From Escherichia coli (GTDB lineage: Bacteria; Pseudomonadota; Gammaproteobacteria; Enterobacterales; Enterobacteriaceae): a stretch of DNA of 64,000 nucleotides. Each line of letters starts with the position of its first letter. Positions within the stretch are counted from its first letter, which is position 1. Below are positions 1 to 27,203 of the stretch, in pieces. The notes under the pieces are model-generated. The model worked only from the letters and a program-made list of their open reading frames with translations. It did not search any database and was not told where the DNA came from. The translations under genes and the position numbers were made by a program. The stretch lies in the NCBI RefSeq assembly GCF_013122565.1, contig NZ_CP053258.1; one strand, written 5' to 3'.

Positions 1-191
<191 letters not shown>

Positions 192-203
192 ACCGCGTCA
201 AGG

Positions 204-229
204 GTTGCCGGATGTTTCCATCCGGCAAC
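204..229. terminator. Stem-loop between convergent glnB and hmp (candidate bidirectional terminator)
   Basis: Inverted repeat gttgccgga / tccggcaac with 8-nt loop, placed between the two stop codons. Confidence 0.45.
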
Positions 230-235
230 ATCAAA

Positions 236-1426
236 TCACAGCACCTTATGCGGGCCAAAGCATTCGTAATGAATGTTTTCCTGCTTCACGCCCAGATCCA
301 CTAACTGTTTCGCGGCAAACTGCATGAAGCCAACCGGGCCGCAGAGATAGAACTGCATTGTCGGATCGCTGAACGCACCTTCCAGTTTGCTCAAATCCAT
401 CAGACCTTCGCTATCAAACTGACCTTTAGCGCGATCGGCTTCGCTCGGCTGACGATACCAGGTGTGCGCGGTAAAGCGCGGCAGTGACTGCCCCAGTTCC
501 TTAACTTCATCGGCAAAGGCGTGAACATCGCCATTTTCTGCCGCATGGAACCAGTTCACTTGTGCTGTGTGGCCTGCTTTTGCCAGCGTGTCGAGCATTG
601 CCAGCATTGGCGTTTGACCGACACCGGCAGAGATTAACGTCACTGGTGTGTCATCGGCCACAGCCATAAAGAAATCACCTGCCGGAGCGACCAGTTTCAC
701 GACATCGCCAACATTGGCGTGATTGTGCAACCAGTTGGATACCTGCCCGCCATCTTCGCGTTTCACCGCAATACGATAGCCTTTGCCATCCGGTTTGCGA
801 GTCAAAGAGTACTGACGAATTTCCTGATGCGGGAAACCTTCCGGCTTCAGCCAGACGCCGAGATATTGCCCCGGACGGTATTCTGCCACTGCGCCACCGT
901 CGACCGGCTCCAGTTCGAAGCTGGTGATAAGCGCGCTGCGCGGTGTTTTAGCCACAATGCGGAAATCGCGAGTACCTTCCCAACCACCGGCTTTGCTGGC
1001 GTTTTCGTTATAGATTTCCGCCTCGCGATTGATAAATACATTAGCCAGTACGCCATAGGCTTTACCCCACGCGTCCAGCACTTCCTGCCCCGGGCTGAAC
1101 ATTTCGTCCAGCGTTGCCAACAGGTGTTCACCGACGATGTTGTACTGTTCCGGTTTGATCTGGAAACTGGTGTGCTTCTGCGCGATTTTTTCTACCGCTG
1201 GCAGCAGCGCAGGCAGGTTTTCAATATTACTGGCGTAGGCGGCAATAGCGTTAAACAGGGCTTCACGTTGATCGCCATTACGCTGGTTACTCATGTTAAA
1301 AATTTCTTTGAGTTCTGGGTTATGAGTAAACATACGGTCGTAGAAATGGGCGGTTAACTTTGGCCCCGTTTCCACCAGTAAAGGGATGGTGGCTTTTACT
1401 GTAGCGATGGTTTGAGCGTCAAGCAT
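236..1426 (-). CDS. hmp: Flavohemoglobin / nitric oxide dioxygenase
   Basis: ORF 236..1447 translation contains [17 protein letters not shown]... globin plus FAD/NAD reductase domains; start placed at internal ATG (1426) giving 396 aa; the longer ORF start at 1447 falls inside the promoter/operator. Confidence 0.93.
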
Positions 1427-1452
1427 ATGGTCTTCCTTTTTTTGCATCTTAA

Positions 1453-1475
1453 TTGATGTATCTCAAATGCATCTT
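1453..1475. promoter_or_regulatory. NsrR operator in hmp promoter
   Basis: Sequence ttgatgtatctcaaatgcatctt (reverse complement aagatgcatttgagatacatcaa) is an inverted repeat matching the NsrR site I recall for hmp, located just upstream of the hmp start. Confidence 0.65.
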
Positions 1476-1753
1476 ATAAAAAATAGCCCTGCAATGTAAA
1501 TGGTTCTTTGGTGTTTTTCAGAAAGAATGTGATGAAGTGAAAAATTTGCATCACAAACCTGAAAAGAAATCCGTTTCCGGTTGCAAGCTCTTTATTCTCC
1601 AAAGCCTTGCGTAGCCTGAAGGTAATCGTTTGCGTAAATTCCTTTGTCAAGACCTGTTATCGCACAATGATTCGGTTATACTGTTCGCCGTTGTCCAACA
1701 GGACCGCCTATAAAGGCCAAAAATTTTATTGTTAGCTGAGTCAGGAGATGCGG

Positions 1754-3007
1754 ATGTTAAAGCGTGAAATGAACATTGCCGATTATGATGCCGAACTGTG
1801 GCAGGCTATGGAGCAGGAAAAAGTACGTCAGGAAGAGCACATCGAACTGATCGCCTCCGAAAACTACACCAGCCCGCGCGTAATGCAGGCGCAGGGTTCT
1901 CAGCTGACCAACAAATATGCTGAAGGTTATCCGGGCAAACGCTACTACGGCGGTTGCGAGTATGTTGATATTGTTGAACAACTGGCGATCGATCGTGCGA
2001 AAGAACTGTTCGGCGCTGACTACGCTAACGTCCAGCCGCACTCCGGCTCCCAGGCTAACTTTGCGGTCTACACCGCGCTGCTGGAACCAGGTGATACCGT
2101 TCTGGGTATGAACCTGGCGCATGGCGGTCACCTGACTCACGGTTCTCCGGTTAACTTCTCCGGTAAACTGTACAACATCGTTCCTTACGGTATTGATGCT
2201 ACCGGTCATATCGACTACGCCGATCTGGAAAAACAAGCCAAAGAACACAAGCCGAAAATGATTATCGGTGGTTTCTCTGCATATTCCGGCGTGGTTGACT
2301 GGGCGAAAATGCGTGAAATCGCTGACAGCATCGGTGCTTACCTGTTTGTTGATATGGCGCACGTTGCGGGCCTGGTTGCTGCTGGCGTCTACCCGAACCC
2401 GGTTCCTCATGCTCACGTTGTTACTACCACCACTCACAAAACCCTGGCGGGTCCGCGCGGCGGCCTGATCCTGGCGAAAGGTGGTAGCGAAGAGCTGTAC
2501 AAAAAACTGAACTCTGCCGTTTTCCCTGGTGGTCAGGGCGGTCCGTTGATGCACGTAATCGCCGGTAAAGCGGTTGCTCTGAAAGAAGCGATGGAGCCTG
2601 AGTTCAAAACTTACCAGCAGCAGGTCGCTAAAAACGCTAAAGCGATGGTAGAAGTGTTCCTGGAACGCGGCTACAAAGTGGTTTCCGGCGGTACTGATAA
2701 CCATCTGTTCCTGGTTGATCTGGTAGATAAAAACCTGACCGGTAAAGAAGCAGACGCCGCTCTGGGCCGTGCTAACATCACCGTCAACAAAAACAGCGTA
2801 CCGAACGATCCGAAGAGCCCGTTTGTGACCTCCGGTATTCGCGTGGGTACTCCGGCAATTACGCGTCGCGGCTTCAAAGAAGCAGAAGCGAAAGAACTGG
2901 CTGGCTGGATGTGTGACGTGCTGGACAGCATCAATGATGAAGCCGTTATCGAGCGCATCAAAGGTAAAGTTCTCGACATCTGCGCACGTTACCCGGTTTA
3001 CGCATAA
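1754..3007 (+). CDS. glyA: Serine hydroxymethyltransferase
   Basis: ORF translation [22 protein letters not shown]... with PLP-lysine region [14 protein letters not shown]; AGGAG Shine-Dalgarno at 1744-1748; start at second ATG gives 417 aa. Confidence 0.96.
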
Positions 3008-3072
3008 GCGAAACGGTGATTTGCTGACAATGTGCTCGTTGTTCATGTTGGATGCGGCATGAACACCTTCTC

Positions 3073-3147
3073 AGGCCTACAAAATCTTGCAAATTCAATA
3101 TACTGCAATCTCCGTGTAGGCCTGATAAGCGCAGCGCATCAGGCAAT
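3073..3147. repeat. REP/BIME-type palindromic units downstream of glyA
   Basis: aggcctaca...tgtaggcct inverted repeat followed by gataagcgcagcgcatcaggc, typical E. coli REP consensus. Confidence 0.7.
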
Positions 3148-3204
3148 TTTTCGTTTATGATCATCAAGGCTTCCTTCGGGAAGCCTTTCTACGTTATCGC
3201 GCCA

Positions 3205-4404
3205 TCAAATCTGTCGTAACTGCGTCTCAACATACAAATAGCCAATTCCCAGCACCTGTTGTGCGCGGCTTAATTGCCCGAAGCCAATTTGCGTCGCTTT
3301 CACGCTCGGTCCTTCGTCGCGGTCGAACGGGTTAAATCCTGTCTGGCGAATAATGGTATTAAGCCAGTGCTCACCAAAGGCACAACTGCGACCGTACAAC
3401 CAAATCTGATTAATATTGAGGATGTTGAGGAAGTTATACAGACTCAAACCAATGGCATTGGCACTGCGGTCAACCCAGCTGGTGATCCACGGTTCTCCAC
3501 TCTGCCAGGCAGCGATTAACTGCGCGGTTGTCAGTTTTTCAGGATCAAGTTGAGTATTAACCGGTTGTGATTTTAGCCATACCCGCGCCTGTTTTTTTAA
3601 TGCACTTAACGAGGCGACGGTTTCCAGGCAGCCGTAACGTCCACAGTCGCAGACGACGCCATCCGTATTAACGATGGTGTGACCAATCTGTCCGCTACCA
3701 TACAAACTGCCGCGATAAATTTGCTCGTTAATCACGAACGACGAGCCAATGCCGTAATCAACGTTGATCACGCAGAAATCCCGTTCCTGCGAATTATTTT
3801 GCCATTTTTCCGCCAGCGCCAGCATCACGCAGTCATTATCGACCATCACCCGAATGCCCAGCTTCTCTTCCAGCAGATATTTCACCTCAACCGGCGTTGT
3901 CCACGGCGCTTGCGGCATGGTTTGCGACACTCCAGTCACTGGATCAACCTGACCGTGGATTGCCAGCGCCAGATTGATGGTGCGGTCCGGCCACAATTTA
4001 CGGTGGCGATGCCAGCATTTTTCGATTTCGGACAGCAGCGCCTGCGGCGTCGGTGCATCAATCTGTAAATACTCAAATTCACCTTTCGGACTTAAACAAG
4101 CATTAGCAACCTGACACTCAATACTGGTGGGCGTCACGTTCAGGCACAGCGTCCAGTCACCTTCCGGCGCAATCAGCCATGTACCGCTACTATGCCCGCG
4201 CGTCTGGCTTTCATCGTCGATATTCACCACCCGTTTTTCGCTTTCCAGTTCCTGCAAAATATTACTGACTGCCGGAATCGAAATTTGCGCCAGCCGGGCC
4301 AGCGTTGATTTATTGGCGCGCTTTTGCCGGTACAGCAGTTCCAGAATCACGCATTTGTTATGGTGGCGAATCTGTTGATTGTTAATGCAGGCTCTCATCT
4401 TCAC
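3205..4404 (-). CDS. yphH: ROK-family transcriptional regulator (NagC/Mlc-like)
   Basis: ORF translation has an N-terminal HTH region and the ROK zinc motif CDCGRYGCLE; position and sequence match K-12 yphH as I recall it. Start could be the second ATG at 4398. Confidence 0.85.
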   Translation of the reverse strand: MKMRACINNQQIRHHNKCVILELLYRQKRANKSTLARLAQISIPAVSNILQELESEKRVVNIDDESQTRGHSSGTWLIAPEGDWTLCLNVTPTSIECQVANACLSPKGEFEYLQIDAPTPQALLSEIEKCWHRHRKLWPDRTINLALAIHGQVDPVTGVSQTMPQAPWTTPVEVKYLLEEKLGIRVMVDNDCVMLALAEKWQNNSQERDFCVINVDYGIGSSFVINEQIYRGSLYGSGQIGHTIVNTDGVVCDCGRYGCLETVASLSALKKQARVWLKSQPVNTQLDPEKLTTAQLIAAWQSGEPWITSWVDRSANAIGLSLYNFLNILNINQIWLYGRSCAFGEHWLNTIIRQTGFNPFDRDEGPSVKATQIGFGQLSRAQQVLGIGYLYVETQLRQI

Positions 4405-26816: not shown

Positions 26817-27203
26817 ATGGCTTACAGCGAAAAAGTTATCGACCATTACGAGAATCCGCGTAACGTGGGTTCCTTTGACAACAACGACGAGAACGTCGGC
26901 AGCGGCATGGTGGGTGCACCGGCCTGTGGCGACGTGATGAAGTTGCAGATTAAAGTCAACGATGAAGGTATCATTGAAGACGCGCGTTTTAAAACTTACG
27001 GCTGCGGTTCTGCTATCGCTTCCAGCTCCCTGGTCACCGAATGGGTGAAAGGGAAGTCTCTCGACGAAGCGCAGGCGATCAAAAACACCGATATTGCTGA
27101 AGAACTTGAACTGCCGCCGGTGAAAATTCACTGTTCTATTCTGGCAGAAGACGCGATCAAAGCCGCCATTGCGGACTATAAAAGCAAACGTGAAGCAAAA
27201 TAA
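26817..27203 (+). CDS. iscU: Fe-S cluster scaffold protein IscU
   Basis: Conserved Cys motifs GAPACGDVMKLQ, YGCGSAIASS and LPPVKIHCS; 128 aa. Confidence 0.97.
   Translation: MAYSEKVIDHYENPRNVGSFDNNDENVGSGMVGAPACGDVMKLQIKVNDEGIIEDARFKTYGCGSAIASSSLVTEWVKGKSLDEAQAIKNTDIAEELELPPVKIHCSILAEDAIKAAIADYKSKREAK

Follow-up and report, generated by a model that had tools for sequence, protein, structure and literature searches.

The 327 bp from position 1427 to position 1753 of the DNA analysed here, a 64-kb stretch that we refer to as the window, correspond exactly to the whole divergent intergenic region between hmp (minus strand) and glyA (plus strand) of Escherichia coli. We are highly confident that they form a control region shared by the two genes, with NsrR and additionally FNR at hmp, likely MetR sites in the middle and PurR at glyA. 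The preliminary description, made from the sequence alone, had called this a divergent hmp-glyA control region, and that identification is borne out by the RefSeq start codons and by a comparison with K-12 MG1655, where the corresponding segment (NC_000913.3, 2685508-2685834; K-12 position = 2687261 minus window position) is 100% identical, with 0 differences in 327 bp. The window begins with the 3' end of glnB, after which come hmp (minus strand) and glyA (plus strand), and the gene order glnB-hmp-glyA-yphH is the same in the window and in MG1655. The strain is not K-12 itself, because the flanking genes (about 3.4 kb) differ from K-12 at 51 positions, or about 1%. Among complete E. coli genomes, 5384/5425 match the region at 99% identity or more. 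Since the region is identical to that of K-12, published K-12 knowledge applies to it directly, and there is no difference within it from the glyA-hmp region for which RegulonDB/EcoCyc record NsrR, FNR and MetR at hmp and MetR and PurR at glyA. In other words, what we have here is the glyA-hmp control region already known from E. coli, and each element named in the preliminary description had been described before. The intergenic DNA is AT-rich, with a G+C content of 39%, and a search of Rfam at a permissive E-value gave no match inside 1427-1753.

In enteric bacteria, aerobic detoxification of NO falls mainly to the hmp product, a flavohaemoglobin with NO dioxygenase activity. The strong regulator of hmp is the NO-sensitive iron-sulfur repressor NsrR, with further inputs from FNR, Fur (weakly) and MetR, and tight repression of hmp by NsrR matters for fitness in macrophages. 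The product of glyA, serine hydroxymethyltransferase, supplies one-carbon units for purine, thymidylate and methionine synthesis. The features that we place in the region and at its two edges are the following, with the basis for each.

1424-1426, minus strand: start codon of hmp, the ATG of MLDAQ in the 396-aa product (RefSeq, MG1655 and strain E2865)
1432-1437, minus strand: hmp Shine-Dalgarno sequence AGGAAG, 5 nt before the ATG (sequence, footprint block)
1440-1450, minus strand: secondary single NsrR-like 11-mer AAGATGCAAAA, a direct repeat of the distal NsrR arm 25 bp away
1445-1447, minus strand: upstream in-frame ATG of the longer mechanical ORF, not the real start (ORF list)
1453-1475, minus strand: NsrR operator, an 11-1-11 imperfect palindrome (published site identity, PWM, conservation)
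1453-1466, minus strand: FNR-like box TTGAG-ATAC-ATCAA, nested in the hmp-proximal NsrR arm (pattern search)
1471-1476, minus strand: predicted hmp -10 hexamer TAAGAT (promoter scan, TTTACA-18-TAAGAT; conserved block)
1495-1500, minus strand: hmp -35 hexamer TTTACA (promoter scan; footprint)
1537-1551, plus strand: candidate MetR site A, GTGAAAAATTTGCAT (order-wide consensus ATGAAAAATTTGCAT; positional conservation)
1558-1572, plus strand: candidate MetR site B, a putative weaker half-dyad CTGAAAAGAAATCC, about 21-22 bp from A toward glyA
1620-1635, plus strand: PurR operator AGGTAATCGTTTGCGT (published 16-mer, PWM, conservation)
1644-1649, plus strand: -35-like hexamer TTGTCA on the glyA side, moderately conserved as TTGTCAAGACCT (promoter scan, TTGTCA-16-AATGAT)
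1677-1682, plus strand: glyA -10-like hexamer TATACT (TAnACTGT), the best conserved (footprint)
1693-1704, plus strand: small hairpin GTCC-AACA-GGAC, at the predicted 5' end of the glyA leader
1743-1747, plus strand: glyA Shine-Dalgarno sequence AGGAG, 6 nt before the ATG at 1754
1754-1756, plus strand: start codon of glyA (RefSeq annotation; ORF list)

Much of the evidence comes from a comparison across the order. One genome per species was scanned for a degenerate pattern that covers the first 11 hmp codons, with at least 120 loci as the result; of the loci listed, 106, all from Enterobacterales species, have the divergent glyA-hmp arrangement, with intergenic regions of 272-468 bp. Because the pattern lay in the hmp N-terminus, retrieval of these orthologues was independent of the operators. 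A MAFFT alignment of the 104 sequences whose identity to the window is below 90% provided a conservation footprint. Its peaks on the hmp side fall on the Shine-Dalgarno sequence of hmp, the NsrR site (1455-1476) and the -35 hexamer TTTACA (1495-1500), and on the glyA side with the PurR box (1623-1638), a block at 1677-1684 and the glyA Shine-Dalgarno block (1736-1750).

We take as an NsrR operator two 11-bp motifs (consensus AAGTTGCATTT) that form an inverted repeat around a single spacer base pair and exceed the published PWM threshold. The inverted repeat that the preliminary description had matched to NsrR on the hmp side is such a site. Positions 1453-1475 read TTGATGTATCTCAAATGCATCTT on the plus strand and AAGATGCATTT-G-AGATACATCAA on the hmp strand, AAGATGCATTT being the distal and AGATACATCAA the proximal arm. 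With a palindromised, leave-one-out PWM built from the 25 other sites of a published table (PMC5320621), the site reaches 18.0 bits, more than any other match in the 64-kb window (P per position 4.4e-7, ln P -14.6, at window composition; 7.4e-6 at AT-rich intergenic composition). The same 23-mer is the hmp entry in Table 4 of the CFT073 NsrR ChIP-seq study, where it lies under the glyA/hmp peak and has a PatSer ln P of -18.22 against a cut-off of -14.28 (PMC5320621). The motif scan that the preliminary description had proposed thus places NsrR above threshold, and it does the same for PurR, discussed below.

Taken singly, the two arms score very differently. The distal arm (1465-1475) is the best single NsrR 11-mer in the window, at 15.8 bits, and the proximal arm falls below 4 bits as a half-site. 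A repeat finder with a 6-nt seed reported no inverted repeat in 1400-1780; it missed the palindrome because the arms are complementary at only 7/11 positions, the exact runs common to both being only 4 nt long, and the site is visible only to the PWM. The second-best NsrR match in the window (26940-26962, 12.0 bits) was dismissed as chance, since it lies below the mean best score of the shuffles (13.7).

Position and conservation add to the motif score. The operator overlaps the predicted, conserved -10 hexamer TAAGAT (1471-1476) by five bases. The listed species, 106/106, all have a site that scores 17.2 bits or more, with a median of 27.4 bits against a 99th percentile of 13.6 for shuffles, and the distance from its center to the hmp ATG is about 38 nt, with an interquartile range of 37-40 nt. 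The weakest palindrome among the 106 is that of Escherichia, which scores 17.2 bits in that scan. An NsrR motif upstream of hmp was first predicted by an earlier comparative study (PMC1274295), and a later review describes NsrR repression of hmp and summarizes the roles of MetR, FNR and NsrR at this gene (PMC2884951). For NsrR occupancy in vivo, and for the direction of regulation at hmp, we rely on the published ChIP data and reviews.

Comparison with other NsrR operators places the hmp site within a familiar design. The ytfE and hcp operators have the same 11-1-11 architecture and the same promoter overlap, and the ytfE distal arm is AAGATGCATTT, as at hmp. The difference lies in the proximal arm: the ytfE palindrome is almost perfect (published ln P -25.1), whereas the hmp site has a degenerate proximal arm that doubles as an FNR box. 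The hmp operators of other Enterobacterales (Pantoea, Kosakonia, Klebsiella, Salmonella) occupy the same position with respect to the ATG, the -10 and the -35 and have the distal arm AAATGCATCTT in common with it, but they score 20-31 bits compared with 17.2 in Escherichia, where TT replaces AA in the arm and C replaces T at two positions.

On the glyA side, the preliminary description had reported a PurR-box-like sequence at 1621-1636, written as tacgcaaacgattacc, the reverse complement of that interval. The box is real and published, although the register was off by one: the canonical 16-mer, AGGTAATCGTTTGCGT, occupies 1620-1635, one base to the left. We define the operator type as a 16-bp dyad, ACGNAAACGTTTGCNT, with a central CG. 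Using a leave-one-out PWM from 27 other sites, the box scores 21.5 bits (P = 3.6e-8 per position), and the runner-up in the window reaches 11.0 bits. A box of at least 12 bits is present in 105/106 listed species, with a median of 18.6 bits against a 99th percentile of 10.2 for shuffles; its distance from the glyA ATG is about 122 nt (interquartile range 119-125 nt), and in the footprint and the alignment the segment CGTTTGCGTAAA within it is nearly invariant. The 64-kb window was also searched for the guaB PurR box as a positive control; this box was absent, and the window therefore does not reach guaBA.

The exact same 16-mer stands in the glyA row of Table 1 of a PurR ChIP-chip study, with an enrichment of 2.08 with adenine and 1.13 without (PMC3159470). 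The published U00096.2 coordinates of this site differ from ours by a constant version offset of 1978 bp. RegulonDB gives the glyA site "confirmed" evidence, footprint and site-mutation evidence for it have been summarized, and among PurR targets that do not belong to the de novo nucleotide pathways glyA alone is rated "confirmed" (PMC3548332). The statement that PurR binds at glyA in vivo is taken from the published ChIP-chip data. With the PurR operators of the pur regulon (purF, purT, purHD and others) the glyA box has in common the 16-bp dyad, the central CG and the half-site CGTTTGCGT, and its 21.5 bits put it in the upper half of the training sites (median 20.3). Its placement is different in one respect: at 44% of PurR targets the operator is situated between the -35 and the -10 (PMC3159470), whereas the glyA box lies upstream of the -35-like hexamer.

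Taken by itself, apart from position, conservation and ChIP data, the E. coli NsrR motif score is only suggestive, and we considered whether both the NsrR-like and the PurR-like matches might be chance resemblances in AT-rich intergenic DNA with no regulatory role. The number of 18-bit NsrR matches expected per 64 kb ranges from about 0.06 to about 1 according to the background model, the upper value being that for a background of 39% G+C; the highest-scoring matches in dinucleotide-shuffled copies of the window have 20 bits for NsrR and 21-22 bits for PurR; and the palindrome arms, as noted, are poorly matched. Within the 327 bp, however, the expected number of matches with such scores is only 2.7e-4 to 4.5e-3 for NsrR and 2e-5 for PurR, the two sites keep their placement in all, or all but one, of the listed species, far above the shuffled controls, and both lie with identical sequence under published ChIP peaks (PMC5320621, PMC3159470). 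The conservation and ChIP data already refute a chance origin, to which we assign practically no weight.

On the hmp side, both promoter hexamers are conserved: the -35 is nearly invariant (mean 1.97 bits over 104 non-Escherichia sequences), and the spacer is 18 bp in E. coli and 17 bp in most species. The hmp transcription start would accordingly lie near 1464. On the glyA side, the -10 chosen by the promoter scan, AATGAT, is poorly conserved, and the footprint instead favours TATACT: the block 1677-1684 (TATACTGT) averages 1.80 bits, and TATACT or TACACT is found in all representative genera. This hexamer, which lies 27-29 bp from TTGTCA, implies a glyA transcription start near 1689-1690. 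With either of the two glyA promoter candidates, the position of the PurR box is upstream of the -35 region. The ROSE supplement contains no transcription start for glyA or hmp. The promoter coordinates, like those of the MetR sites below, should be read as predictions from consensus scans combined with conservation.

The predicted glyA leader would begin close to a small hairpin. A 4-bp hairpin at the same position occurs in 58/91 distinct orthologous leaders, compared with 35% in a cross-species control, and its arm varies (GTCC, GCCC, ACCC, CCCC) together with matching partners. RNAalifold found no consensus structure in the glyA leaders, and their MFE z-scores were not significant (mean -0.54). 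The position-specific pairing test is thus the one analysis that points to the hairpin, and its support is modest. Further downstream, the glyA Shine-Dalgarno sequence lies within a stretch of 22 nt (1732-1753) that shows hardly any variation across the order. Another in-frame glyA ATG is present at 1748, with zero spacing from the Shine-Dalgarno sequence.

Between the two promoters lie the candidate MetR sites; the preliminary description had named MetR only as one of the matrices to scan with. Site A has one mismatch to TGAA-N5-TTCA (7/8 core positions; 8/10 to ATGAA-N5-TTCAT), and site B matches 6/8 core positions. Matches to the MetR consensus are no more frequent in the window than chance predicts (30 versus 26.9 expected), and we have called the sites only from positional conservation because the consensus scan was not above chance. 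A best match within 2 mismatches of ATGAA-N5-TTCAT is found in 80/106 listed species, versus 22% of shuffles, and in 55 of them site A and the PurR box are separated by a fixed 82-85 bp. The TGAA cores of A and B are 22 bp apart; in the alignment, the 15-mer 21 bp from site A has the consensus CCTGAAAAGAAATCC and forms a moderately conserved block. The two sites thus keep a conserved position and a spacing of about two helical turns, and they probably represent a strong-site/weak-site pair of the LysR type. A passage in PMC5002191, citing Lorenz & Stauffer 1995/1996, reports two MetR sites in the hmp-glyA region.

These elements suggest how the region may work. The sigma-70 promoter of hmp would be overlapped by the NsrR operator from the -10 to about +12, a classical arrangement for occlusion, so that the iron-sulfur repressor NsrR, when on its operator, would block RNA polymerase. 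Damage to the NsrR cluster by nitric oxide would cause NsrR to leave and hmp to be derepressed. A second, anaerobic layer of repression may come from FNR in Escherichia, where the promoter-proximal operator arm also matches the FNR box. The two LysR-type dyads about 21 bp apart, the likely MetR sites, would allow MetR with homocysteine to activate glyA and to modulate hmp. At the other end, PurR with hypoxanthine or guanine would bind its box upstream of the promoter, with less glyA transcription when purines are plentiful.

The hmp operator also bears on the choice of the hmp start codon. The ORF list contains a longer hmp frame that begins at the ATG at 1445-1447, and the preliminary description had argued that this frame would start inside the NsrR repeat and that the shorter start was thereby supported. 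The short start (ATG 1424-1426) is indeed right, but the argument is weak, because the upstream ATG lies 6 nt outside the 23-bp palindrome and because an overlap with the operator would in any case prove little. Operators can overlap transcribed or coding DNA. The case for the short start rests on other observations. A Shine-Dalgarno-like core precedes the hmp ATG in 105/106 listed species, and an in-frame ATG at -21 is present in only 4/106; in the alignment, the position of the upstream ATG shows no conservation in Salmonella, Citrobacter or Klebsiella. The crystallised protein of PDB 1GVH (396 aa) aligns with residues 8-403 of the long ORF, the NCBIfam flavohemoprotein profile NF009805 matches the short form from its position 1, and RefSeq annotates the same start.

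That the longer ORF is the true start, or an additional one, is very improbable. It is in frame with no intervening stop, and the predicted transcription start near 1464 would place its ATG inside the mRNA. Against this, it has no Shine-Dalgarno sequence, conservation in the footprint falls immediately upstream of 1432-1437, and the solved protein and the family profile both begin at MLDAQ. The upstream ATG falls inside the secondary 11-mer (1440-1450), which is linked to the distal NsrR arm by a direct repeat, TGCATCTTA, present twice. This 11-mer scores 7.5 bits, which is not above chance alone, and is confined to Escherichia, being absent from Salmonella, Citrobacter, Klebsiella and the rest; it has been given as the weak motif "hmp (19)" under the NsrR ChIP-seq peak (PMC5320621).

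The FNR-like box at 1453-1466 matches 9/10 positions of TTGAT-N4-ATCAA, a level at which the window holds 6 matches versus 2.0 expected. With up to one mismatch, it is found in only 10/106 listed species (Escherichia, Citrobacter, Salmonella and two others), and the FNR site at hmp has been described as conserved only in E. coli and Salmonella (PMC1274295). Judged by its distribution among the listed species, the box is a lineage-specific addition. The substitutions that weaken the Escherichia NsrR palindrome are those that create the FNR box. The one mildly unexpected result is that Escherichia combines the weakest NsrR palindrome of the sampled order with an extra half-site of its own.

One way to account for this pattern, which we put forward tentatively and consider possible but somewhat doubtful, is that the hmp operator was remodelled in Escherichia: the proximal NsrR arm would have drifted from AAGATGTATTT to TTGATGTATCT, the same changes would have completed the FNR box, and an Escherichia-only AAGATGCA half-site would have been gained 25 bp downstream. 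Another reading is that 1453-1475 in E. coli is mainly an FNR operator and that NsrR control is exerted largely through the single 11-mers (1465-1475 and 1440-1450) and not through a true palindrome. The proximal arm, so poor as an NsrR half-site and so close to an FNR box, would fit such an arrangement, as would the lowest palindrome score of the 106 listed species and the second AAGATGCA motif under the ChIP peak 25 bp downstream (PMC5320621); according to a passage in the same paper, citing Partridge 2009, NsrR is able to bind one 11-bp motif by itself. Yet the full 23-mer passes the published palindrome threshold, the extra 11-mer carries little weight by itself, and reviews call NsrR the strong repressor of hmp (PMC2884951); ChIP-seq, for its part, is unable to separate sites 25 bp apart. 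We regard this reading as unlikely, and we retain a palindromic NsrR operator whose proximal arm doubles as an FNR box.

What the analysis contributes is mainly a positive control. A reader working from sequence only found two real operators and the right start codon of hmp, and leave-one-out PWMs together with an order-wide footprint recover the known architecture; no new biology comes from the finding itself. A lineage-specific rewiring of the hmp operator is nevertheless plausible from the comparison of orthologous sequences. Its novelty would be modest, as the pieces (an FNR site limited to close relatives and single 11-mers that bind NsrR) are already in the literature. If functional, the remodelled operator would represent a lineage-specific move of hmp repression, from pure NsrR control to control shared by NsrR and FNR, with a compensating accessory half-site.

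The hmp NsrR operator, an imperfect palindrome at 1453-1475, reaches its minimum score in Escherichia among the 106 Enterobacterales species listed: it scores 17.2 bits there, and the median over all species is 27.4 bits. Escherichia is represented in this comparison by E. coli, E. albertii and Escherichia sp. E1V33. The same bases that deviate from the motif in the hmp-proximal arm of the Escherichia palindrome create an FNR-like box. In addition to the palindrome, the hmp side carries a half-site:

1440-1450: additional AAGATGCAAAA half-site that repeats the distal NsrR arm 25 bp further downstream (direct repeat, two TGCATCTTA copies)

This half-site scores weakly with the position weight matrix (7.5 bits), is restricted to Escherichia among the species listed, and contains the spurious upstream hmp ATG.

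Two other matches to regulator motifs were considered. The second-best NsrR match in the window, TCGTTGACTTTAATCTGCAACTT at 26940-26962 (12.0 bits), is placed between two plus-strand ORFs of 412 and 128 aa; shuffled windows give a higher best score on average, and the match is probably a chance occurrence. Within the intergenic region, ATGTAAATGGTTCTT at 1494-1508 has two mismatches to the MetR 15-mer consensus and overlaps the hmp -35 element, a resemblance that probably follows from the conservation of TTTACAT.

On the glyA side, a consensus scan proposes TTGTCA-16-AATGAT as the promoter (within 1644-1684). The phylogenetic footprint, an alignment of orthologous intergenic regions, peaks on TATACTGT (1677-1684), 27 bp from TTGTCA. 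The conserved TTGTCAAGACCT box may thus have a role different from that of -35 element in the main glyA promoter. A short block, AAAGCCTTG at 1601-1609, is also kept in most genera; it is flanked by the MetR-like sites on one side and the PurR box on the other.

The glyA leader itself carries two small candidate hairpins:

1693-1704: GTCC-AACA-GGAC, a few bases past the inferred glyA transcription start
1706-1717: GCCT-ATAA-AGGC, found only in Enterobacteriaceae among the orthologous leaders compared

In 58 of 91 distinct orthologous glyA leaders a 4-bp hairpin sits where the first one does, as compared with 35% in a cross-species control, and its two arms change together (GTCC/GGAC, GCCC/GGGC and ACCC/GGGT). 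RNAalifold and minimum free energy z-scores computed on the orthologous leaders gave no support for the hairpin. Directly before the glyA ATG, the 22 nt at 1732-1753, TTAGCTGAGTCAGGAGATGCGG, are near-invariant throughout the order, a degree of conservation that exceeds the needs of a Shine-Dalgarno sequence. The block includes an in-frame ATG at 1748, with zero spacing from the Shine-Dalgarno sequence, and could be a translation-initiation region or a contact region for an sRNA or protein.

Downstream of glyA, a stretch of the repeat-rich spacer (3081-3123) resembles the Rfam sRNA ES036 (CssrF) at a score below threshold (26.5 bits, gathering score 37.6, E = 0.04); this stretch is probably a REP-like element. 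Farther along, collinearity with K-12 would place the PurR box of guaB at about 53.1 kb. The box is missing from the window, so collinearity with K-12 does not hold across the full 64 kb. The control region at 1427-1753 has no differences from K-12 and the flanking genes (within 1-3760) have 51 in about 3.4 kb; because of this disparity, the sequence comparison suggests that the control region is under stronger constraint than synonymous sites.
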